In this document: in pieces, positions 10,151 through 37,886 of the stretch | Layout: every line of letters begins with the position of its first letter | Position numbering within the stretch: position 1 is the first letter of the stretch | Source: a virus | Taxonomy: Duplodnaviria; Heunggongvirae; Uroviricota; Caudoviricetes | IMG/VR virus record: IMGVR_UViG_2706794683_000014 | Strand: one strand, 5' to 3' | Length of the DNA: 39,467 nt | Position numbers and translations under genes: made by a program | Notes under the pieces: model-generated | The model's database searches: none | Told to the model about the DNA's origin: nothing | Seen by the model: only the letters and a program-made list of their open reading frames with translations

Positions 10151-10412
10151 NNNNNNNNNNNNNNNNNNNNNNNNNNNNNNNNNNNNNNNNNNNNNNNNNN
10201 NNNNNNNNNNNNNNNNNNNNNNNNNNNNNNNNNNNNNNNNNNNNNNNNNNNNNNNNNNNNNNNNNNNNNNNNNNNNNNNNNNNNNNNNNNNNNNNNNNNN
10301 NNNNNNNNNNNNNNNNNNNNNNNNNNNNNNNNNNNNNNNNNNNNNNNNNNNNNNNNNNNNNNNNNNNNNNNNNNNNNNNNNNNNNNNNNNNNNNNNNNNN
10401 NNNNNNNNNNNN
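10151..10412. other. Masked/undetermined sequence (262 N)
   Basis: Run of n in the input; interrupts the scaffold gene 5' region. Confidence 1.
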
Positions 10413-19403: not shown

Positions 19404-19855
19404 TGCTGACCCCACAAACAGATTTCNNNNNNNNNNNNNNNNNNNNNNNNNNNNNNNNNNNNNNNNNNNNNNNNNNNNNNNNNNNNNNNNNNNNNNNNNN
19501 NNNNNNNNNNNNNNNNNNNNNNNNNNNNNNNNNNNNNNNNNNNNNNNNNNNNNNNNNNNNNNNNNNNNNNNNNNNNNNNNNNNNNNNNNNNNNNNNNNNN
19601 NNNNNNNNNNNNNNNNNNNNNNNNNNNNNNNNNNNNNNNNNNNNNNNNNNNNNNNNNNNNNNNNNNNNNNNNNNNNNNNNNNNNNNNNNNNNNNNNNNNN
19701 NNNNNNNNNNNNNNNNNNNNNNNNNNNNNNNNNNNNNNNNNNNNNNNNNNNNCCAGACCATCGTTACCACTTGGGCCAGTGATTAACACTGATGCTATAG
19801 CAATTGCTCCGCCACCAATAGCAGCAGCAACGACTTTTCGTAATGATGGAGGCAT
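19400..19855 (-). CDS. Signal-anchor-release (SAR) endolysin, phage-21 R type; interior masked by N
   Basis: N-terminus [34 protein letters not shown] and C-terminus EICLWGQQ match recalled phage 21 lysozyme; the same frame stays open across the N run. Confidence 0.75.
19427..19752. other. Masked/undetermined sequence (326 N)
   Basis: Run of n in the input, inside the endolysin gene. Confidence 1.
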
Positions 19856-20321: not shown

Positions 20322-20717
20322 CTAACCTCGCATGTCAAAGCCAGATTTCTGAAAATCTCTGTAGACTTCCGGATTGTTGAAGGCCGGAAATTTGGCTTTA
20401 TGAGCTGCGGACTTTATCGCTTCGCAATAGGCTTTATCACCGTTACTGGTAGATATTTTTAACGCCGTGCCATCCTGAGAGAATTCCATATGCAACCTGC
20501 ATTTTTTCCCTTTCCAGTTATGCGGCTCATCAAGTTTGGCATTAATTGCAGCTCTGATTCCCCGCGCTTGCGCCCCCCATTCATCCTGATCATCCCAGCG
20601 TCCTGAACTGCAACTACCTGTAGCAGTAGTTTTGTGGCAATCTGAAGGGTGTAAAGGTGTGCATCCCGCAACAAAACCGACCCAAAAAGTCAACATAACG
20701 ATTTTCTTTAATCCCAC
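20322..20717 (-). CDS. Lipoprotein with TolA domain-III-like C-terminus (diverged paralog)
   Basis: Signal peptide plus lipobox FVAGC-T; C-terminal region alignable to the neighbouring paralog and to TolA domain III (…GKKCRLHMEF…GDKAYCEAIKSAAHKAKFPAFNNPEVYRDFQ…). Confidence 0.7.
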   Translation of the reverse strand: MGLKKIVMLTFWVGFVAGCTPLHPSDCHKTTATGSCSSGRWDDQDEWGAQARGIRAAINAKLDEPHNWKGKKCRLHMEFSQDGTALKISTSNGDKAYCEAIKSAAHKAKFPAFNNPEVYRDFQKSGFDMRG

Positions 20718-20867
20718 TTCTTGCTCCTCAATCCATTAAAATCTCAGCAATAGTAGTTGTTACGTCCGCCACTGGCTCAGAGCTGACTATCCGCTAAATT
20801 TAGCTCAGTGCCGTAGCTGTGTCAGAACAAACCTAAGCCGAAACCGTTTATTACAAAACAATAAATA

Positions 20868-21296
20868 TCAGGGTTTAAAATCCAGCACCCCATTTTGAAA
20901 TACTTTATATACTTCCGGCGAAGGGGGGGCAGGTATATCAGCATTCTTTATCGCATTCATCGCTTCACGACATAAATCGAGGTCTCCACTTTCTCTTTTA
21001 ACCTCCAGTAGAAGGCCATTCGGGGCCATATGCATTCTCAGTGTACACTCTTTTCCTGAATACTTACTCGCATCCCCGAACTGTTTTTCGATGGCGCTCT
21101 TGATTTGATGGGCATACAGACGGATATCCTCACTAACATCAGAAGTACGTTCAGATGAACTCACATACTGTGTCTCTATTGCTTTATCGGAGTAATATGA
21201 TGTACGGTCATGATAATTTGTCGATACAGCATCAGTGCACCCGATAATAATCCCACTAATAATCAACGTAAGAATTGATGCGCTACGAAAACCCAT
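20868..21296 (-). CDS. Lipoprotein with TolA domain-III-like C-terminus
   Basis: Lipobox IIGC-T; C-terminal YAHQIKSAIEKQFGDASKYSGKECTLRMHMAPNGLLLEVKRESGDLDLCREAMNAIKNADIPAPPSPEVYKVFQNGVLDFKP closely parallels the recalled E. coli TolA C-terminus (YAGQIKSAIESKFYDASSYAGKTCTLRIKLAPDGMLLDIKP...AVYEVFKNAPLDFKP). Confidence 0.75.
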   Translation of the reverse strand: MGFRSASILTLIISGIIIGCTDAVSTNYHDRTSYYSDKAIETQYVSSSERTSDVSEDIRLYAHQIKSAIEKQFGDASKYSGKECTLRMHMAPNGLLLEVKRESGDLDLCREAMNAIKNADIPAPPSPEVYKVFQNGVLDFKP

Positions 21297-21884
21297 TTTT
21301 CCTCACATATGTCATATAGTAAAGGATTATATATACCGTTGTTTTGGACGCTCAAACAGCGAATCAGATCAAATAAAACGCACATTTGTTAACATTTACA
21401 CAAAGTCTGCGTGGGATATTCTGAAAGAATATCCATAATGTGGAGAGAATCTATTGAAGTGCATGGTGCCGGGTGCCTCCCGGTGAACAAAATGTTCGTG
21501 ATACCTGTCGGCGACAGAAAAGGTTAATGGTATCACCCCACCGCACAGGGGGATTCACCATGCAGGAGTTTTCTTAGCAAACTCACTGCGCGCCCGGCAA
21601 CTCCCAACCACATAAAATGCGGAGTTTGTGGCATTTATGCATATAACTCGCAGGAATTATCTTAAAAAACTGATGTCGATCCGGATTAAAAAGAAGCAGG
21701 TCATCATCAGATGACTGGAAAAAAGGAAAACAAAAAATACTCATCATACAGTTTTGATTGCAGGGATGAGCCTGCTATGCACAATATGCAGAATATAAGC
21801 AAGATAAAAATATGCAGGCATATTATTTCGGATCTTGTTATTAACACAACCTTTTTAATAATCATTTGGCATACAATAAACCAG

Positions 21885-21913
21885 CCCAAAAAGAACCGCC
21901 TAAACAGGCGGTT
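21885..21913 (-). terminator. Intrinsic terminator-like hairpin in the late leader region
   Basis: Minus strand AACCGCCTGTTTAGGCGGTT followed by CTTTTTGGG. Confidence 0.4.
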
Positions 21914-22233
21914 GGTCAATACAAAGGATGCTTCGTCTTTATTATAGTAATCTGAGGCGTCGGGTGTCTTGTATCAGACAACATATTGTCCCGCTAAACA
22001 GCGAATTACAAACCACCCTGCAATGATCTCTCATCTCATTTTATATGAGTTGACGACATCAGGATAACGCATCATCAGCCCCTGCCAAGAAATATCAAAA
22101 CTCCCGCCAGCAATGTGTTATCACAATATTGTAAAAAAAACACAGCACCGAAACTATAACTGGTCTCTGTTATAATTTGGAGCAGAAAGACCAGTTGCCC
22201 AACTAGCAGCATTCTCCCCTGCTTTCCTGACGT

Positions 22234-22260
22234 AAAAAAACCGCATTAAGCGGTTTTTTT
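22234..22260. terminator. Bidirectional intrinsic terminator; candidate tR-prime of the late operon
   Basis: AAAAAAACCGC-ATTAA-GCGGTTTTTTT: GC stem flanked by an A-run and a T-run, about 80 nt downstream of the Q stop. Confidence 0.6.
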
Positions 22261-22264
22261 ACGA

Positions 22265-22340
22265 TGTCCATGTCTGCAATCCGCCTCGCGATACAGCTTT
22301 GCGAAGCATAGCAAAATTGAAGCAGTTTATACGTAAGAAA
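22265..22340 (-). promoter_or_regulatory. Candidate late promoter (pR-prime) region just downstream of Q
   Basis: TATAAA -10-like hexamer at 22326..22331 (minus strand) a few nt after the Q stop, followed by the terminator; no clear -35, so this rests on position. Confidence 0.3.
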
Positions 22341-22883
22341 TCAAGCCATTTTCTCAGCAAATGATTCACGCATGGGAATATATAGGGCATACTCAGCAAC
22401 AGCTAACCAATTAGCAATCCGTTTTTCGCATGTGCTAAAACACCACTCTGGGTGTGCATCATTTAGCAATTCAGCCATTTTGCGCTTAGTCATCCCCCGC
22501 CCTTCATAGCGTTGCCGGAGAATGCAAATCAATCCTGGATGCTCTGCCAGCACCTCACTTATGACTCGATCAATACATAACGCCTCTGCATCAGTACAAT
22601 GCGCCAGCCAGCTCTTTTGCTTGCCGTTGATCATCTCTCGCAAAAACGCTTCCAGCTCAGCTTTCTCTATTCCCGCTTTTTTCATTCTGCGCAGGGCTTC
22701 ATTAATGGCTGTTTTCGTCAGTTTTTTGGATGCCAACAACTGATTGAACATATTCCCTGACCTGCCACCGCCAATATACGACCAGCGCCCCCACATACGT
22801 AGTTTTCCCTGAATCCAGACACTTTCCAGCGTGGTGAGGCGAAGGTGTTCTCCGCTTTTTCCTGTATTCGTTGGGTAAATCAT
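22341..22883 (-). CDS. Late-gene antiterminator Q-like protein
   Basis: 180 aa ORF immediately upstream of the promoter/terminator pair and the lysis genes; tryptophan-rich motif WIQGKLRMWGRW reminiscent of Q-family proteins. Confidence 0.55.
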   Translation of the reverse strand: MIYPTNTGKSGEHLRLTTLESVWIQGKLRMWGRWSYIGGGRSGNMFNQLLASKKLTKTAINEALRRMKKAGIEKAELEAFLREMINGKQKSWLAHCTDAEALCIDRVISEVLAEHPGLICILRQRYEGRGMTKRKMAELLNDAHPEWCFSTCEKRIANWLAVAEYALYIPMRESFAEKMA

Positions 22884-23170
22884 AAATGACCTTTCTTTCT
22901 CCAGATTTCTTGTGTGCGAAAAACCCCTTCAGCATGCATCAGGCGCAATTCTTCTTTGGTGTAATCGCTGGTTTTTACCCGCCCGTCGATTAGATCGTGG
23001 CATGAGCTACAGGCTATCGCCGCCTGCATATCATGTGGTTTTGTCGCTGTTCCGCACGTCCCCGCCAGCCTGTAATGCGCCAGCACAGAGGTTTCGGGAT
23101 TGTGATTGCAGTAGCCAGGGATTCTGATCTGGCACATCTGGCCTTTAGCCGCTTTACGTAAATTCACCAT
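22880..23170 (-). CDS. Cysteine-rich nin-region protein (DUF1364 / YbcO-like, probably zinc-binding)
   Basis: 96 aa ORF with several spaced cysteines and histidines (C..C...C...CSSCH); position just upstream of Q; family name from memory. Confidence 0.5.
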   Translation of the reverse strand: MVNLRKAAKGQMCQIRIPGYCNHNPETSVLAHYRLAGTCGTATKPHDMQAAIACSSCHDLIDGRVKTSDYTKEELRLMHAEGVFRTQEIWRKKGHL

Positions 23171-23769
23171 TACGCAAACTCCAGTAGTTGTGCGGCCACA
23201 TTTTCAACTTCCTCCTGAGAGGAGAATTTACGGAACAGAATCCAGTTCCACAGCACATTCAGTACAGATTTATAAACCTGCTGAAACTCGACTTCGTCCA
23301 TATTCGCAAAAGCGATGGATTTTGCCCGACGCCCACGGCTACCGTCCGGATAAATATGCTCGGTGTAAAATCCGGCCTGAATGGTTACCCACTCGCGGAA
23401 AGCCTCAAACGACTTTAGCAACGCCGTATCCCGGGTTCTACGAGTCGCAACGGTGTTAAGGTATTGCTCTGCGGCATCACTCAGGGCTGGCGTGTGTTCC
23501 CGACCAACTGATTCGCACAGGTAATCAACGAAACCAGACAGCAGTTCTCGTTCGCGAGGCGTGATCGCCCCACCGACCGGAGTCCAGTAATCGAATCCCA
23601 GTTGCAGGAGTTTGAAAAAACGCTTGTGGAATGCGTAGTTACGCACACGCTTAAAGTCTGCGTGTATCCACTCACCTATTTTGATTTGATGCAGAAAATC
23701 GCAACTCTCCGGCGTCGCCGGGAGAAGTAAACCAGAAGAGGTTTGTTTGACCAGTTGTATATGCGCCAT
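23170..23769 (-). CDS. Conserved lambdoid nin-region protein (DUF1367-like)
   Basis: 199 aa ORF translationally coupled to the downstream gene; family name from memory only. Confidence 0.45.
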   Translation of the reverse strand: MAHIQLVKQTSSGLLLPATPESCDFLHQIKIGEWIHADFKRVRNYAFHKRFFKLLQLGFDYWTPVGGAITPRERELLSGFVDYLCESVGREHTPALSDAAEQYLNTVATRRTRDTALLKSFEAFREWVTIQAGFYTEHIYPDGSRGRRAKSIAFANMDEVEFQQVYKSVLNVLWNWILFRKFSSQEEVENVAAQLLEFA

Positions 23770-24136: not shown

Positions 24137-24527
24137 AGTAGCCACATGATAAGTTGCTGGAATCATATTTCCCACTCAAGTCATTAACATTTGATAAGAT
24201 ATATCTAAAAGGACGCCTTTACATTATTTATGCGTATATAATTTATTTATATACACAGTAAAGGTATCCTGGGAAAATATTTATCGTTAAAAAATACATC
24301 ATAAATAATTAAGCTGAAATTTCAGAACACAACTAATACACACAATAAGGTTCAGTAACAGTAATCTATGTGGACTACATCGAGATTTTTTGATTAAACT
24401 TTAATAACTTATTCCTAACACACAGAATGCATAAACTAAAAGTAAAACAAATAGTTATACGAAAAACAACCATATTTATTCTATCTTCTCCTCTAATCAA
24501 CATATCAATTATGTGTTTCATAACAGC

Positions 24528-24569
24528 TTGACATAACCCTCCAAAAGATGCATTTTTAATGCATGTTTT
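24528..24569 (+). promoter_or_regulatory. Promoter with an NsrR-like inverted-repeat operator upstream of the yeaR-like gene
   Basis: Perfect TTGACA at 24528..24533, then AAGATGCATTT-T-TAATGCATGTT (24545..24567), a 9/11-matching inverted repeat resembling the recalled NsrR consensus. Confidence 0.4.
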
Positions 24570-24582
24570 GGAGGAGGTGGTT

Positions 24583-24921
24583 ATGACACACAAGAGAATT
24601 CCTAAAGATTGGGTAATCAAACGCTCAACTCCGTTCTTCACAAAAGAGAACGTACCTTCAGCGTTATTAACACATCATAATACAGCAGCAGGTGTTTTTG
24701 GGCAGTTGTGCGTAATGGAAGGCACTGTAACATATTATGGTTTTACTGATGAGAATGCTACTGAACCGGAGATAAAAGTAGTCATTAATGCTGGCGCTTT
24801 TGCAACAAGCCCACCACAATACTGGCACCGTGTTGAACTAAGCGATGATGCTCAGTTTAATATTAACTTTTGGGTCGCTCCAGACTTTTCGGGCGAAAAA
24901 GTCTATAGCACCAAAAAATAG
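24583..24921 (+). CDS. YeaR-like protein (DUF1971 family)
   Basis: GGAGGAGG Shine-Dalgarno before the ATG at 24583; 112 aa product resembles recalled E. coli YeaR; opposite strand to the phage operons; AT-rich. Confidence 0.65.
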   Translation: MTHKRIPKDWVIKRSTPFFTKENVPSALLTHHNTAAGVFGQLCVMEGTVTYYGFTDENATEPEIKVVINAGAFATSPPQYWHRVELSDDAQFNINFWVAPDFSGEKVYSTKK

Positions 24922-24950
24922 ATGATCATATTAAAAATGCTTTAACAGTC

Positions 24951-24988
24951 AGACCCGGCAGGGCTATCCCCGACGGGTCTCATTTTTG
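24951..24988 (+). terminator. Putative intrinsic terminator after the yeaR-like gene
   Basis: GACCCG...CGGGTC stem followed by TCATTTTTG. Confidence 0.4.
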
Positions 24989-25541
24989 TAAATATATTGG
25001 TTCTACATTGACAGGAGACTTCAACCATAAGAAGTAATCTGAATACTTGAGCAATAAATTTACTTAAGATTAATGAGCGCACCTTGCCGGACAAAGATAA
25101 ACCAAGGTAACACCTTTTTTCTAGCCAGTATGTAATCAATCAGAAAGCCGCTCCATAAGAACAACAGCAAGACAATAAATTGCCATTACAGCCGCAATAG
25201 CCAGCGCACATTTGAGAACCAGCACGACAACCCCCTGTATTAGACGCACACCAGTCCTGATAAATATGAGGCTGTCTCGTCAGTGATTCAATACAACTAT
25301 TGGGTATAGTTTCTGTGATTTTATTCTGTAGAAATGGAACACAACAACCAGTCACCACCAGCACTTCCTTAAATGCTCTAAGTCAGAAACAAGCCAACAT
25401 TTTAGTCCGCTTTGAGCGATCTGCAGACATTGCTAGCAGCCTTCTGTGTGAATTCTCAGGGAGCAGGTCGGCATAGCATCACGTTGAGGCTCTTACCCTA
25501 CTTGTTCACACCAACCCTAACTCCACAGACTGATTCATAAA

Positions 25542-26543
25542 TTAGTAATCTGCGTGTTTCGCACTTTTCAGAAATGCTTTCATATTTTCATTAGGTCGCT
25601 CAATTTCGAAGTTACTTCCATATAACTCTTGTAATTTTGGCCATAACTTACTTAATAACCCTCTCCTGCGATAAAATGGATGTATCCAAACGGTAGATAG
25701 GTACGGAGAATTTGCATTTGAATTGTTTATTGTGACCAGCCCAACTAAACATTGTCGATAACCACTATTATCCATTGATTGTATTTCTTCGACGAATGGA
25801 TACGCGATTACATCAGTCCAACCATGATCGGTTGTATCCCATTGCATTCCGTCATGACATTCCTTCGACTGATAGCGGCGTAAAGCTACACACGCGAGCT
25901 TTTGCCAATCTGGAGAATTAATTGTGATCTCTTCATCGTATGACGCGCCTATTGGAGCGGGTATTGGTCTGATTAATCCAGCATGGCATTCATCATAGAA
26001 CTTCATGTTTCCCTCAGAAACGTTGTGTACGTTGGGTTGCTCCATGTGTGCGCCATTCAAAAATAGCTCTGATAGTAGTGTATCTACACTGTAATCTTTA
26101 TTGATTATTGTCGGCTTAGAGTTTTTCTTATTAAGGCCGCGAGTAACGATTTTTTGATCAATGTTAACAACATGGAATAATCCGTCGGGGAGGCTAGCGA
26201 ACCACGATGGGGCATCGGACCAGAATAGCATGCCTTTTGTACTTCTTAAGAGTTTAATTAAGTTAATACAAGCTTCTTCACTAGTCTTGCCGTTGATGCG
26301 AAGTATGTTAGGACTAAAGTAATATTCATCCATATCAGGGAATGCAGCTTCGCAAAACTCCTGTACATAATTTAGCACCTGGATTCTACAGAGATCATCA
26401 TAGCTGGTAATAACTAAGGGGGTATCTTCATTACTATTATGATTATCAATAATGCAATCTATAGCGAGACTTACTGCTTTGCGTATCACTTCAGTTGAAT
26501 CTAACGACTCTAAAAATTTTGTCTTTCGTGTGCGAATATCCAT
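25542..26543 (-). CDS. Hypothetical protein with a C-terminal GNAT acetyltransferase-like motif (cassette gene 2)
   Basis: 333 aa ORF; C-terminal ...LVGLVTINN...STVWIHPFYRRRGLLSKLWPKLQELYG resembles GNAT motif A; N-terminal ~220 aa unrecognised; AT-rich; starts 16 nt after the upstream gene stop. Confidence 0.6.
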   Translation of the reverse strand: MDIRTRKTKFLESLDSTEVIRKAVSLAIDCIIDNHNSNEDTPLVITSYDDLCRIQVLNYVQEFCEAAFPDMDEYYFSPNILRINGKTSEEACINLIKLLRSTKGMLFWSDAPSWFASLPDGLFHVVNIDQKIVTRGLNKKNSKPTIINKDYSVDTLLSELFLNGAHMEQPNVHNVSEGNMKFYDECHAGLIRPIPAPIGASYDEEITINSPDWQKLACVALRRYQSKECHDGMQWDTTDHGWTDVIAYPFVEEIQSMDNSGYRQCLVGLVTINNSNANSPYLSTVWIHPFYRRRGLLSKLWPKLQELYGSNFEIERPNENMKAFLKSAKHADY

Positions 26544-26558
26544 GTATGACCTGCGCTA

Positions 26559-27581
26559 TTAAAATTCATGAATGAACGGTTTGTCATCTGGTTGCAAAAT
26601 GGTGGTTTTATTCGTTGCTACATTTAAACTGTTGTAGAGCATAATTGCCAGGTTCGATGCATTTTCAATCAGCGTTTCAAGATCCTGGTCTGTAATCACT
26701 ACGAGGTTCCCTTCTTTATCCTTTCCACCACGATGCACTAAGTGATTTCGATTGAGGGTTGCCAATTCAATAGCTTCTATCGGACAGTCTTTTTGTACTT
26801 TTATATCGAATGTAGCTTCATAGCGGTCGATTACCTTTTTAGTGCTATGCCAGCTTGCACTGATCAAGTGTTCCTTGATTGACCTGATTAGCTCTCCCCT
26901 AATTTTCTCGATGGGTTCACCCTTGAAAGGCAACGCAGCAATATCTTTGCTTACTTTAAATTCAGTCTTACCTTTTTCTATACAATTGGCTATGTAGACA
27001 TCATCTTTCTCTATAGAATTAATGAATAGCTCAACATAAAGCGTTTCCAAAGCTGTAATAACATTCGTGTAGAGCAAACTAAGCAAGTGGTTTTTTTGCT
27101 GTTGTTCAGTTTTATCTTTTGCAAGTTTTTTTATTTTATCGATATTATCAATGAATTTTAAATACGGATTACCGGAAGACGTTACAGCGTCGTAGATATC
27201 ATCATCGTACCAATCATCTATATTATTTGAGTTTCCAGACCAGTCAAAACATTGTGTTTGTAATTCATCTACTAATTCCTCAATATACTCAGATTTAACA
27301 TATTGACCGAAGATGGATTGTAGTTCTTCGCTCGCATCATACGGCCCGCCATATATGTAAGCATAGCCACCTTCTCTACTTTCATACGGACAAGCATTTG
27401 CCGGATCTTCAAAGTTTTCAAAGAACCAGTTTTTCATTACTTCGAGTTGATCTTTTTTGCTTATGTATTTTAAAGATTTTAGTGGAACTTTCTTTCCATT
27501 AACCTCGAAAACAATTTTCACGATGTAACGCTCCCTTGTATCAATTGCGCAACTATTATACCACAGCGAAATACAGGGCAT
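26559..27581 (-). CDS. Hypothetical protein with an R-x4-H (HEPN-like) motif near the C-terminus (cassette gene 1)
   Basis: AAGGAGG Shine-Dalgarno 6 nt before the ATG at 27581 (MPCISLWYNSC...), 340 aa; C-terminal ATLNRNHLVHRGGKD contains R-x4-H; AT-rich; no recognisable phage-core homology. Confidence 0.6.
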   Translation of the reverse strand: MPCISLWYNSCAIDTRERYIVKIVFEVNGKKVPLKSLKYISKKDQLEVMKNWFFENFEDPANACPYESREGGYAYIYGGPYDASEELQSIFGQYVKSEYIEELVDELQTQCFDWSGNSNNIDDWYDDDIYDAVTSSGNPYLKFIDNIDKIKKLAKDKTEQQQKNHLLSLLYTNVITALETLYVELFINSIEKDDVYIANCIEKGKTEFKVSKDIAALPFKGEPIEKIRGELIRSIKEHLISASWHSTKKVIDRYEATFDIKVQKDCPIEAIELATLNRNHLVHRGGKDKEGNLVVITDQDLETLIENASNLAIMLYNSLNVATNKTTILQPDDKPFIHEF

Positions 27582-27796
27582 AACCTGCCTCCTTAAACTA
27601 ACATACCATGAGCCAGCAATGTCCGCTATTGGCACAAAGCGGACAACCACGCTAGCTCTCCCCTGTGCCAGAAAAATGTCAATTTACATATGAACTAATG
27701 CTCTTTGATCTAGTAACGTCTATAAATACCGAAGATTTCCTTGATAAAATGCCAGTACACGTTTCATAACTTCACTCTTCCGGCACTCGCGACAGA

Positions 27797-28156
27797 TTAT
27801 GTTCTGACGCCTGTCATAGCGGCGTATTTCTCCGTCTGGTAATGACCAGATAANNNNNNNNNNNNNNNNNNNNNNNNNNNNNNNNNNNNNNNNNNNNNNN
27901 NNNNNNNNNNNNNNNNNNNNNNNNNNNNNNNNNNNNNNNNNNNNNNNNNNNNNNNNNNNNNNNNNNNNNNNNNNNNNNNNNNNNNNNNNNNNNNNNNNNN
28001 NNNNNNNNNNNNNNNNNNNNNNNNNNNNNNNNNNNNNNNNNNNNNNNNNNNNNNNNNNNNNNNNNNNNNNNNNNNNNNNNNNNNNNNNNNNNNNNNNNNN
28101 NNNATTTTTTCACGCTCTTCCTGTGTAAAAACTTTTGCCATAAGCGCCTCCGGCAA
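27797..28156 (-). CDS. Hypothetical nin-region protein, interior masked by N
   Basis: Start overlaps the stop of the upstream gene (MPEALMAKVFTQEEREK...), C-terminus ...LSGHYQTEKYAAMTGVRT; frame continuity across the N run is assumed. Confidence 0.3.
   Translation of the reverse strand: MPEALMAKVFTQEEREKXXXXXXXXXXXXXXXXXXXXXXXXXXXXXXXXXXXXXXXXXXXXXXXXXXXXXXXXXXXXXXXXXXXXXXXXXXXXXXXXXXXXLSGHYQTEKYAAMTGVRT
27854..28103. other. Masked/undetermined sequence (250 N)
   Basis: Run of n in the input. Confidence 1.
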
Positions 28157-37636: not shown

Positions 37637-37886
37637 NNNNNNNNNNNNNNNNNNNNNNNNNNNNNNNNNNNNNNNNNNNNNNNNNNNNNNNNNNNNNNNN
37701 NNNNNNNNNNNNNNNNNNNNNNNNNNNNNNNNNNNNNNNNNNNNNNNNNNNNNNNNNNNNNNNNNNNNNNNNNNNNNNNNNNNNNNNNNNNNNNNNNNNN
37801 NNNNNNNNNNNNNNNNNNNNNNNNNNNNNNNNNNNNNNNNNNNNNNNNNNNNNNNNNNNNNNNNNNNNNNNNNNNNNNNNNNNNNN
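37637..37886. other. Masked/undetermined sequence (250 N)
   Basis: Run of n in the input; covers the ralR 3' part and the ydaC 5' part. Confidence 1.

Follow-up and report, generated by a model that had tools for sequence, protein, structure and literature searches.

A mosaic non-coding late-operon leader with an STnc100 copy between a Q-like antiterminator gene and tolA-like genes of a Rac-type prophage

Introduction

Between the stop codon of a Q-like antiterminator gene and the first of two lipoprotein genes, the prophage DNA analysed here (39,467 nt, referred to as the window) has a gap of about 1 kb (21297-22340), and the question is what such a stretch does in a late operon. On one side, the gap is bounded by the stop codon of a gene for a 180-aa protein of the Pfam family DUF1133 (22341..22883, minus strand); on the other, it is bounded by a gene for a lipoprotein with a TolA C-terminal domain (20868..21296, minus strand; Pfam TolA, 82.6 bits), which is annotated tolA in related genomes. 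A first-pass annotation, made from the sequence alone, had named four features in the gap, namely, two terminators, a plus-strand extended -10 promoter for an antisense RNA, and a group of nested inverted repeats, and all four are present where it placed them. We conclude that the gap is an ordinary non-coding late-operon leader of a Rac-type prophage and that this leader is a mosaic of largely known parts. Its sequences, folds, family match and comparative conservation were observed directly and are described below.

Results

Setting of the gap

The window carries the Rac gene set in the order Q, gap, tolA-like genes, essD and rrrD. The leader region is nearly unchanged in approximately 450 of 5,426 complete E. 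coli genomes; among complete phage genomes, the same leader was not found, and phage records cover at most 31% of the query. The tolA-like lipoprotein genes are preceded by a sigma70-like promoter sequence of their own (TTGAGC-18-TATAAT, 21326..21355, minus strand), which agrees with the consensus at 10 of 12 positions and is identical in L114. In an Rfam scan of the whole window, STnc100 alone passed its gathering score, matches to STnc350 and isrK being sub-threshold, and a search for tRNA and tmRNA genes in the window returned none. Both kinds of scan had been proposed by the first-pass annotation.

An STnc100 copy in the structured segment

The STnc100 small-RNA gene (Rfam RF02076) was identified by a covariance-model match at 21407..21593 on the minus strand, in the sense of the late operon; the score of 86.6 bits (E 2e-18) exceeds the gathering score of 47, and the match spans model positions 1-206. 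The nested inverted repeats at ~21470..21560, which had been singled out earlier as a structured segment, lie inside this full-length match and form its core; GTGATACC/GGTATCAC, CTGTCG/CGACAG and CCGGG/CCCGG are all paired in the predicted minus-strand fold of 21640..21340 (z -3.18). The fold consists of a closing helix UGCAUGGUG/CACCAUGCA, a CCCCC..GGGG hairpin, a variable arm GUGAUACC..GGUAUCAC and a CCGGGAGGCACCCGG hairpin, and the window shares these four elements with the known family members EcOnc27, sRNA103 and EcOnc42, names given to copies located after stx genes. The multi-helix junction, with the closing helix GCAUGGUG/CACCAUGC, the CCCCC..GGGG hairpin, the variable arm and the CCGGG-AGGCA-CCCGG hairpin, appears in both the minimum-energy and the centroid folds. 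The core is identical to that of 84 variants; the comparison set was gathered by an exact 16-nt core motif, and hence the core pairs are invariant and covariation is uninformative, while changes on both sides of pairs occur in the variable arm only, where the alignment is rough. A tRNA-like reading of the junction was rejected, as ARAGORN returned nothing and the AGGCA loop, of 5 nt, does not qualify as a T-loop.

At its 3' end, the copy in the window departs from the canonical family. The usual terminator GCCCCUCUCCGGAGGGGC-U is missing; in the alignment, the terminator of the model falls on GGAUAUUC..GAAUAUCC and its U-run is deleted, which leaves no intrinsic terminator at this end. An AU-rich hairpin that has no U-run takes its place, which is the case in every tolA-linked copy. 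On the minus strand at 21370..21412, a hairpin ACGCAGACUUUGU..ACAAAUGUGCGU followed by UUUAUUUG (-8.7 kcal/mol) is a candidate 3' end, and judged by sequence the copy most likely ends at this hairpin and U-run. The variable arm is of a rarer type, common to the L120 and L116 copies. The copy has no recognisable promoter; the promoter scan found no sigma70-like promoter directly upstream of it. The RNA may be processed from longer transcripts, or the copy may be a weakened one.

The published work on the family includes expression and Hfq binding for EcOnc27/sRNA103 (PMC12711010), expression of 11 STnc100-family copies in EDL933, one of them confirmed by Northern blot (PMC5331693), the position of EcOnc42 3' of stx1 (PMC7547250), and the relation of STnc100 to PasD (bioRxiv 10.64898/2026.05.13.724894). 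The family comprises Hfq-binding small RNAs made up of a rigid multi-helix junction, a variable linker (the site of the seed in PasD, a related RNA) and a terminator. With PasD1/PasD2 of EPEC E2348/69, also encoded in a prophage late region, the window has in common the junction architecture GCAUGGUG...CGCCAUGC, with a single-stranded linker and then a terminator behind it. The identity, however, is 78% over just 36 nt, the linker (PasD seed UGUGAG) and terminator differ, and PasD itself lies near a lambda-type Q and lpxR. When PasA, PasB and PasC of the same strain were compared with 21200-22450, no match was found besides the STnc100/PasD core.

The position of the copy, between Q and the lysis genes and in late-gene orientation, is also shared with STnc100 elsewhere. 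In H-19B and many Stx1 phages, the same core is found after stx1B, and in other prophages, whose Q is different, it stands ahead of tolA or SASA esterase genes; its orientation is invariably that of the late genes, and tandem arrays of three to four are frequent. STnc100 units therefore travel with the cargo and lysis modules and not with Q. In Stx phages, the corresponding stretch of the late region is the cargo (moron) slot, in which Q is followed by tRNAs, stx, STnc100, nanS-p and the lysis genes; the gap has the same flanking modules, and 22177..21885 is homologous to the sequence after the tRNA genes in L237 and L240; in contrast to that slot, the window has neither tRNA genes nor a toxin there, and its cargo is the two TolA-domain lipoproteins with their own promoter. 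It had been proposed that regulatory RNA stands here in place of the tRNA and toxin cargo of Stx phages. A regulatory RNA is indeed present, in the form of STnc100, but the same element follows stx1B and stx2B, alongside the cargo and not replacing it.

A probable decayed cassette upstream of the STnc100 copy

The second minus-strand terminator expected from the first reading (t2) was recovered as AACCGCCTGTTTAGGCGGTT followed by CTTTTT at 21913..21886 (stem 21913..21894, U-run to 21886; -11.8 kcal/mol). It closes a unit, 21885..22080 on the minus strand, that is collinear with a unit in L240 (75-80% identity; E 6e-12, 2e-5 and 9e-4) and with one in L065 (E 4e-8). The L065 unit gives a sub-threshold STnc100 match (26.8 bits), and its fold has the same closing helix and CGGGAGGCACCCG hairpin, both of which are broken in the window. 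The link between the t2 unit and STnc100 is drawn from this sub-threshold match in the intermediate, a 13-nt identity and a similar architecture. From these sequence comparisons, 22080..21885 is probably a decayed STnc100-like cassette whose junction helices are broken and whose linker and terminator survive.

A possible but doubtful alternative is that the unit is still alive, and that a sigma70-like site AAGACA-18-TATAAT (21941..21970, minus strand) drives an RNA of ~47 nt (GAAGCAUCCUUUGUAUUGACC plus the terminator), a seed-plus-terminator remnant of an STnc100-like cassette acting via Hfq. The site agrees at 10 of 12 positions, the terminator is strong, and the linker CATCCTTTGTATTGACCAACCGCC is far better kept among the window, RSHH22 and STN0717 than the sequence immediately upstream of it; moreover, the seed of the related PasD sits in the corresponding linker (PMC8550237, supplement). 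The promoter, however, is not kept with the linker: TATAAT is retained in RSHH22, where the -35 is degraded, and is lost in STN0717 and L065. The 2.2 kb scanned contained 9 promoter-like sites, compared with 5.3 expected, so that one good match is unremarkable in AT-rich DNA. The assignment as a decayed cassette is therefore preferred.

Between this cassette and the STnc100 copy, an AT-rich spacer (33% G+C) ends in a weak terminator-like hairpin, t3 (GTCATCTGATGATGAC plus CTGCTTCTTTTT; 21688..21717, minus strand), and the spacer is common to RSHH22 and FEA3, where it lies upstream of their STnc100 copies. Both this hairpin (21717..21688) and the one at 21412..21370, weaker sense-strand sites with a U-run, had been overlooked in the earlier reading.

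Putative promoter, terminator and predicted leader RNA after Q

From the sequence and an anchored comparison with 36 distinct relatives, we infer a putative late promoter PR' at 22316..22344 on the minus strand, with the -35 TTGATT (22344..22339), a 17-nt spacer and the -10 TTCAAT (22321..22316). The -35 overlaps the Q stop codon. A distant clade has TTGCAA-17-TTGAAT at the equivalent place, and loci of the IsrK type have TTGACT-18-TATATT, with the -35 likewise over the stop codon. Immediately downstream lies a conserved -10-like element, TATGCT (22310..22305), preceded by TGC (22305..22313, minus strand), which can be read either as a sigma70-dependent pause element at about +1..+6 or as an extended -10 (TGCTATGCT). 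TAnGCT or TATATT occurs at this position in 35 of the 36 distinct relatives, with TG two bases upstream in 21 of the 35, and the promoter together with the pause-like element is kept in 35 of 36, even among relatives with just 52-64% protein identity. Another -10-like hexamer, CTGTAT, is found at 22296..22291. The start site is uncertain by ~11 nt because TTCAAT is without the consensus A at -11 and TATGCT is itself a possible -10.

The intrinsic terminator tR' of this Q-linked module lies at 22234..22260 and consists of an A7 tract, a stem-loop and a T7 tract. It is symmetric (AAAAAAACCGC-ATTAA-GCGGTTTTTTT) and gives a hairpin of 13-14 bp on either strand, which bears out the bidirectional terminator proposed for the tR' position. 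Downstream of related DUF1133 Q genes, a strong terminator stands 68-113 nt after the Q stop codon in 41 of 45 distinct sequences. The stems of these relatives differ (ACCGC, ACCCGC, ACCACC, GACGCG, AGCCCGAGG), and the A-tract that confers bidirectionality is confined to the window type and the L065 type. The PR'-tR' segment (22234..22340) moves with DUF1133 genes in other E. coli genomes, with 79-83% identity in the records listed (H87-H98). Next to it, a block at 22181..22233 (minus strand) is conserved by sequence identity after tR' in other DUF1133-Q prophages (72-77% identity in SJ7, UTME-9, mip270 and 100117; also present in L090). As candidates for this block, an ORF, a plus-strand promoter and a hairpin were rejected, as none of them is conserved and the reading frame is not kept.

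A short leader RNA of ~65-76 nt is predicted from PR' to tR' (22234..22309, minus strand), and a 69-nt minus-strand leader folds into a 5' hairpin plus the terminator (-24.0 kcal/mol, z -4.2). In position, it corresponds to IsrK, StxS and lambda 6S RNA. With IsrK (RF01394, Salmonella Gifsy-1), it shares an RNA of ~75 nt that begins a few tens of nucleotides past the stop codon of a DUF1133/AntQ-type Q gene, the end at an intrinsic terminator with partial read-through, and the -35 over the stop codon. In contrast, the isrK score is 21.6 bits for the minus strand and 20.1 bits for the plus strand, below the gathering score of 50, the RNA body of the leader is unrelated, and no orf45-anrP-C4 module follows it. 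The leader RNA is thus a match to IsrK in position, not a member of the IsrK family. With StxS and lambda 6S RNA, it shares the scheme of a constitutive late promoter and an immediate terminator, which gives a short lysogen RNA as a by-product of Q-antitermination control, but these belong to another Q family, and the leader of the window is shorter, at ~70 nt compared with 258 nt processed to 74 nt for StxS and 194 nt for lambda.

A proposed antisense RNA

The first-pass annotation had also proposed that a plus-strand extended -10, TGTTATAAT (22168..22176), directs transcription towards the bidirectional terminator; the resulting RNA of ~80 nt, antisense to the late leader, would regulate the read-through or stability of the late transcript. 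The motif is present as a perfect match within a palindrome, CTATAAC-N8-GTTATAA (22154..22176), at a mosaic junction, the plus strand of the terminator has a T7 tail as well, the 82-nt plus-strand product folds as a 5' stem plus the terminator (-25.8 kcal/mol, z -4.9), and there is the weak plus-strand isrK-like match. However, the two occurrences of TGNTATAAT in the window, where 1.29 are expected, are at the chance rate, a count that 39 of 100 shuffles reach, and there is no -35 element, the sequence there being CCGAAA. The fold z-score and the isrK-like score of the plus strand derive from the terminator, and the opposite strand scores alike.

The comparison with relatives also speaks against such an RNA. 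In SJ7, UTME-9, mip270 and 100117, the homologous block is without the plus-strand -10, and the plus-strand tail after the stem, a poor U-tract, reads CTCTTTC, TTCTTTC or TTGTATC; most tR' variants are without the A-tract. L237, alone among the relatives, retains the palindrome, which reads TGTTATAGT there and follows a tRNA-Gly gene, but a terminator is missing at the corresponding distance; the promoter and terminator halves therefore come from different mosaic modules. An opposite-strand promoter conserved jointly with a plus-strand U-tract occurred in no relative compared. The ~80-nt antisense RNA is thus quite unlikely, and the functional parts of the leader are better placed on the minus strand.

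The Q-like antiterminator gene

The product of 22341..22883 scores 356 bits against DUF1133. Against Phage_antitermQ (PF06530), it scores 26.1 bits, with a cut-off of 26, and its likeness to Q21 is weak and N-terminal (PDB 6P18, E 0.27). Relatives that are 84-89% identical have isrK directly downstream; isrK exceeds its gathering score at the equivalent position in L004 (75.6 bits) and L008 (67.1 bits), after Q genes 89% and 84% identical, respectively. In Gifsy-1, the gene upstream of isrK encodes the antiterminator AntQ, which causes antitermination (PMC4825925). Compared by sequence, the DUF1133-family Q of the window is a close homologue of AntQ. Its Q function is deduced from this homology and from its position, the Q82-family match being at threshold and the Q21 match weak.

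A second gene of the "antiterminator Q family" (27729..27211) lies 4.3 kb upstream, and either of the two may drive lysis. With two Q-like genes in the prophage, and with DUF1133 still labelled by Pfam as a family of unknown function, it could be argued that the DUF1133 protein is not the late antiterminator, that the hairpin at 22234..22260 is the plain terminator of the early (Q) operon, and that the real late promoter and tR' are to be sought at another place, such as downstream of the other Q gene. This is highly improbable: in the stretch from the stop codon to the terminator, clades at 52-100% protein identity retain both the promoter-like and the -10-like element, the same slot in L004 and L008 holds isrK, with its own promoter and read-through terminator, downstream of the antiterminator AntQ (PMC4825925), and an inserted block of opposite-strand genes separates the other Q gene from the lysis genes. 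The assignment of the hairpin as tR' is therefore retained.

Coding potential of the gap

The absence of a convincing ORF, as first noted, was borne out by several approaches. Seven ORFs of the gap were tested against Pfam and PHROGs, and the annotation of relatives and frame conservation in diverged homologues were also considered. Pfam returned nothing at E <= 0.1 except a 12-bit, chance-level RELT match, and the best PHROG match had 16.9 bits. The ranking of matches comprised 514 entries, of which 461 span at least 80% of the query; in 40 records drawn from across it, no features were annotated under 21600-22060. Diverged homologues have indels of 1 and 2 nt and have lost the ATG of the longest hydrophobic ORF. 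A hidden small protein gene, such as the 52-70-aa hydrophobic ORF at 21919..21707 (minus strand) or the 78-aa ORF at 21711..21947 (plus strand), can be dismissed as extremely improbable, for although both ORFs are present, other prophages have a small DUF3927 membrane protein immediately upstream of STnc100 and the 78-aa ORF has the PHROG match (E 0.012), there is no Pfam match, the ATG has no preceding Shine-Dalgarno sequence, the homologues in RSHH22 and FEA3 have ATC for ATG and carry 1-nt and 2-nt indels within the ORF, and none of the 40 sampled records annotates the stretch.

Discussion

The best explanation of the gap, to which we assign a probability of roughly three in four, is that it is the mosaic, non-coding late-operon leader of a full-length Rac-type lambdoid prophage, whose functional parts, all on the minus strand, are a Q-controlled promoter and terminator pair, a worn-out small-RNA cassette and one STnc100 copy. 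The use of the promoter, the dependence on Q, the RNA ends and the binding of Hfq are inferred, and transcription would take the following course. Without Q, transcription from TTGATT-17-TTCAAT would end at tR' (22260..22234) and release the leader RNA of ~65-76 nt. Polymerase loaded with Q would read past tR', t2 (21913..21886), the weak t3 and the STnc100 region, and the read-through transcript would then reach the genes for the TolA-like lipoproteins, holin, lysozyme and spanin.

A more far-reaching reading, which we regard as speculative and unlikely, is that lambdoid late leaders are both a nursery and a graveyard of modular small-RNA cassettes. Each cassette would combine a junction handle of the STnc100 type with a swappable seed linker and a terminator, arrays would reach up to four, and the cassettes would have a double role as Q-dependent barriers to transcription and as sources of Hfq-binding small RNAs, with three lysogen RNAs arising from the Rac leader. 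If this were true, the PR' leader RNA of ~70 nt would act in trans like StxS or IsrK; the second RNA would be the ~47-nt seed and terminator remnant of the decayed cassette, expressed from a newly arisen promoter; and the third, STnc100 without its terminator, would be fused to, or processed from, the transcript entering the TolA-like lipoprotein genes.

On the preferred reading of the gap as an ordinary mosaic leader, the current view of lambdoid late regulation is unchanged. The IsrK slot emerges as a general slot for PR'-tR' leaders, in which one RNA body can replace another, and DUF1133 proteins of "unknown function" become linked to AntQ-type antitermination. For annotation, the 1-kb stretch deserves non-coding RNA and regulatory features rather than a blank. 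Finally, the late control region lost from the truncated Rac prophage of E. coli K-12 is mapped here at base level.

Setting and coding potential of the gap

The gap of 1,044 nt separates the gene of a 180-aa, Q-like DUF1133 protein (22883..22341) from the first of two TolA-C-domain lipoprotein genes (21296..20868 and 20717..20322). DUF1367 (23769..23170) and DUF1364/YbcO (23170..22880) genes lie upstream, holin and lysozyme genes follow the lipoprotein genes, and all of them are on the minus strand, the sense strand of the late operon. A copy at 99.9% identity in E. coli 13E0767 shows the window to be a Rac-type prophage of full length, with the Rac gene set (intR, xisR, ralR, recET, kilR, sieB, racR, ydaS-V, trkG, ydaY, and head and tail genes). 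Of 5,426 complete E. coli genomes, 448 contain at least 80% of the gap and about 2,200 contain some part of it. Four N runs mask the window (10151-10412, 19427-19752, 27854-28103 and 37637-37886), one of which falls within the lysozyme gene, beside the region studied. Two genes of the prophage are Q-like, one of the "antiterminator Q family" (27211..27729, minus) and the DUF1133 gene (22341..22883, minus). The stretch between them, 24232..27180, holds a gene for a Hok/Gef toxin and, on the opposite strand, genes for a nucleoid-associated protein and for a hypothetical protein of 477 aa; these intervening genes look like an inserted block.

The gap is non-coding, in agreement with the first-pass annotation, which saw no convincing ORF in it. 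Seven ORFs in it gave no convincing match in Pfam or PHROGs, and 21600-22060 carries no annotated feature in 40 records sampled across 514 matches, 461 of which span most of the query. In the diverged homologues RSHH22 and FEA3, the ATG of a hydrophobic 52-aa ORF is replaced by ATC, and both long ORFs are crossed by 1- and 2-nt indels. The tRNA search found no tRNA gene in the gap. In related prophages, the slot between the Q-proximal terminator and STnc100-type units is occupied by tRNA-Gly (L237:1709-1780), tRNA-Thr and tRNA-Gly (L240:1891-2044) or tRNA-Ile and tRNA-Arg (L113/L114:2998-3257); the window retains the flanking sequence of this slot, the tRNA gene being absent.

The structured segment is an STnc100 RNA

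The only Rfam family above its gathering score in the whole window is STnc100, which matches full-length on the minus strand at 21593..21407 (86.6 bits; gathering score 47). The structured regulatory RNA proposed earlier is thus STnc100, and the nested inverted repeats noticed at about 21470-21560 are real, being exactly the repeats of its fold. In the fold of 21640..21340, UGCAUGGUG and CACCAUGCA form the closing helix. The other parts are the CCCCC-UGUGCGG-UGGGG hairpin, a variable arm (GUGAUACC...GGUAUCAC) that encloses a CUGUCG/CGACAG helix, a small GAACA/UGUUC hairpin and CCGGG-AGGCA-CCCGG.

Scanning viral contigs with a 16-nt STnc100 core gave more than 120 loci and, together with the loci already collected, 84 distinct variants. 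Among these variants, a set gathered by that core, the junction is nearly invariant, and the middle arm, linker and terminator are freely exchanged; an example of two-sided change is GTGATACC/GGTATCAC versus GTGATATC/GATATCAC in L116. Sequences, folds, family match and conservation are direct observations. The copies always lie in late-gene sense. Head-to-tail arrays, with units about 260 nt apart, precede SASA (nanS-p type) esterase or tolA-like genes and comprise four units in L116:1944-2923 and L239:379-1494 and three or more in L238:137-1494. This core is also found behind stx1B, in H-19B and in dozens of Stx1 phages, and in prophages with unrelated Q genes it follows tRNA-Ile, tRNA-Arg and DUF3927 and stands directly 5' of the same tolA-like genes. 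By this distribution, STnc100 travels with the cargo and lysis module, not with Q.

Downstream of stx2B, STnc100 overlaps with the Hfq-binding sRNA EcOnc27/sRNA103 (PMC12711010), and EcOnc42 lies 3' of stx1 (PMC7547250). In EDL933, eleven STnc100 copies are transcribed, and a Northern blot confirmed one of them (PMC5331693). PasD1/PasD2 are structural relatives of the family (bioRxiv 10.64898/2026.05.13.724894); at the PasD2 locus of E2348/69, the same junction precedes the seed linker, with a terminator after it.

As in every tolA-linked copy, the canonical GCCCCUCUCCGGAGGGGC-U terminator is absent from the window's STnc100 and is replaced by an AU-rich hairpin without a U-run. The next hairpin with a U-run lies at 21412..21370, and directly after it comes the lipoprotein genes' own sigma70-like promoter (TTGAGC-18-TATAAT, 21355..21326, graded good), together with the Shine-Dalgarno sequence of the lipoprotein gene. 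Upstream of STnc100, no promoter comparable to this one was found, and the RNA may either be processed out of longer transcripts or start at a weak promoter.

The Q-proximal terminator and putative late promoter

The bidirectional terminator reported at 22234..22260, at the far end of the Q-proximal module (22340..22234), is present as A7-CCGC-ATTAA-GCGG-T7 and folds strongly on both strands. We compared the sequence 3' of the stop codon across 107 loci encoding DUF1133-protein relatives (27 from species-representative genomes and 80 viral contigs). A hairpin with a U-run stands 68-113 nt past the stop codon in 41 of 45 distinct sequences, and three of the four exceptions have an interrupted U-run. 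The stems are unlike each other (ACCGC, ACCCGC, ACCACC, GACGCG, AGCCCGAGG). Position and structure are kept while sequence is not, a pattern that selection for termination would be expected to leave, and the assignment of 22234..22260 as tR' is well supported by this comparison.

The element TAnGCT (TATATT in two) lies 5' of the terminator in 35 of 36 distinct sequences. In close and distant clades, a sigma70-like promoter stands 11 nt upstream of it (TTGATT-17-TTCAAT and TTGCAA-17-TTGAAT, respectively), its -35 or -10 overlapping the Q stop codon. In our reading, TTCAAT (22321..22316) is the probable -10, and TATGCT (22310..22305), at about +1..+6, is a -10-like element. The same arrangement exists at lambda PR', where a -10-like element in the early transcribed region pauses polymerase for Q loading, as in lambdoid Q systems. 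Alternatively, TGCTATGCT may be an extended -10; both readings predict a leader RNA of about 65-76 nt.

The Rfam isrK model scores above its gathering threshold in exactly this slot in L004 (E. coli, 75.6 bits) and L008 (Salmonella, 67.1 bits), whose Q genes are 89% and 84% identical to the window's. The 77-nt IsrK RNA has a promoter of its own and ends at a terminator that is partly read through; the preceding gene encodes the Q-like antiterminator AntQ (PMC4825925). Taken together, the shared slot, the similar Q genes and AntQ would tie DUF1133 proteins to antitermination. The window's leader is the positional counterpart of IsrK and lies outside the IsrK family, since it scores only 21.6 bits. 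In Stx phages, the constitutive PR' terminates at tR' in lysogens, giving StxS (PMC7547250), by the same logic as proposed here. In L004:3075-3276 and L008:3075-3268, a c4-a1b1 match overlaps isrK, and a C4 antisense RNA match comes after isrK; in this, the Gifsy-1 isrK-anrP module resembles the c4-ant immunity region of P1/P7.

The middle of the gap

The second minus-strand terminator (t2) of the first-pass annotation was recovered by the scan, with a T-run, at 21913..21894. Here, 22104..21888 is collinear with a unit of L240 (STN0717; three segments, 75-80% identity, E 6e-12, 2e-5 and 9e-4) and with one of L065 (E 4e-8). The L065 unit has a sub-threshold STnc100 match (26.8 bits), and its predicted architecture is that of STnc100: GAGGUG pairs with CGCCUC in the closing helix, and the unit also has the hairpin CCCC-AGGGCG-GGGG, a long arm in the middle and, adjoining the closing strand, the hairpin CGGGAGGCACCCG. 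In the window the helices of these units are broken (GAGGCG to AGATGA; CTCCTC..GAGGG to GAGATC..CAGGG), CGGGAGGCACCCG has become CAAGACACCCG, the middle arm has a 16-22-nt deletion and the region folds differently, whereas the linker CATCCTTTGTATTGACC and t2 are kept. Most likely, therefore, t2 is the part of a decayed STnc100-like cassette that has survived at its end; confidence is moderate, given the weak connection to STnc100 proper. A promoter-like site (10/12 matches, 21970..21941) just 5' of t2 could yield a 47-nt remnant RNA; its TATAAT is absent from STN0717 and L065. The AT-rich spacer that comes after t2 (33% G+C), which ends in a weak hairpin with a U-run (21717..21688), is shared with RSHH22 and FEA3, upstream of their own STnc100 copies.

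A plus-strand RNA of about 80 nt, antisense to the leader, had also been proposed, running from an extended -10 toward tR'. The motif TGTTATAAT does exist at 22168..22176, but TGNTATAAT is at chance frequency: it occurs twice in the window versus 1.29 times in shuffles, and 39 of 100 shuffles reach at least two. Its sole other occurrence, TGGTATAAT (27555..27563, minus), is inside the upstream Q-family gene. The block 22181..22233, just past tR', recurs behind other DUF1133 genes with 72-77% conservation, although the DNA farther on is different; the block is neither coding nor endowed with a conserved fold. Relatives sharing it have no plus-strand -10 at the matching place and poor plus-strand tails after the stem (CTCTTTC, TTCTTTC or TTGTATC), so their terminators act on the Q-sense strand only; the A-tract that gives symmetry is limited to the window and L065 types. 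The palindrome CTATAAC-N8-GTTATAA enclosing TGTTATAAT recurs as TGTTATAGT in L237, 3' of a tRNA-Gly gene, where there is no terminator at the right distance; 22177..22030 is homologous to L237 sequence after the tRNA genes (72% over 152 nt, E 3e-17). The presumed promoter and its terminator thus derive from two different mosaic modules, joined at about 22180, and are not conserved as a pair. The fold statistics and plus-strand isrK-like score (20.1 bits) stem from the terminator. We therefore regard this antisense RNA as improbable.

Proposed working of the late leader

The gap is a non-coding, terminator-rich late leader with a regulatory RNA, as the first reading pictured; the locus is slightly atypical, and its structured element belongs to an already known family. 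In the lysogen, the late promoter would fire and stop at tR', giving a short leader RNA, STnc100 would be made at some level, like other copies, and the lipoprotein genes would be transcribed from their own promoter. On induction, polymerase at the promoter-proximal pause would be modified by the DUF1133 Q protein and would then read through tR', t2, the 21717..21688 hairpin and the STnc100 region to reach the lipoprotein and lysis genes. What we infer for this locus is the activity of the promoters, the dependence on Q, the ends of the RNAs and their binding to Hfq. The two TolA C-terminal-domain lipoproteins (20322..21355), positioned between Q and the holin gene, are a typical moron, and they may influence Tol-dependent uptake of colicins or phages.
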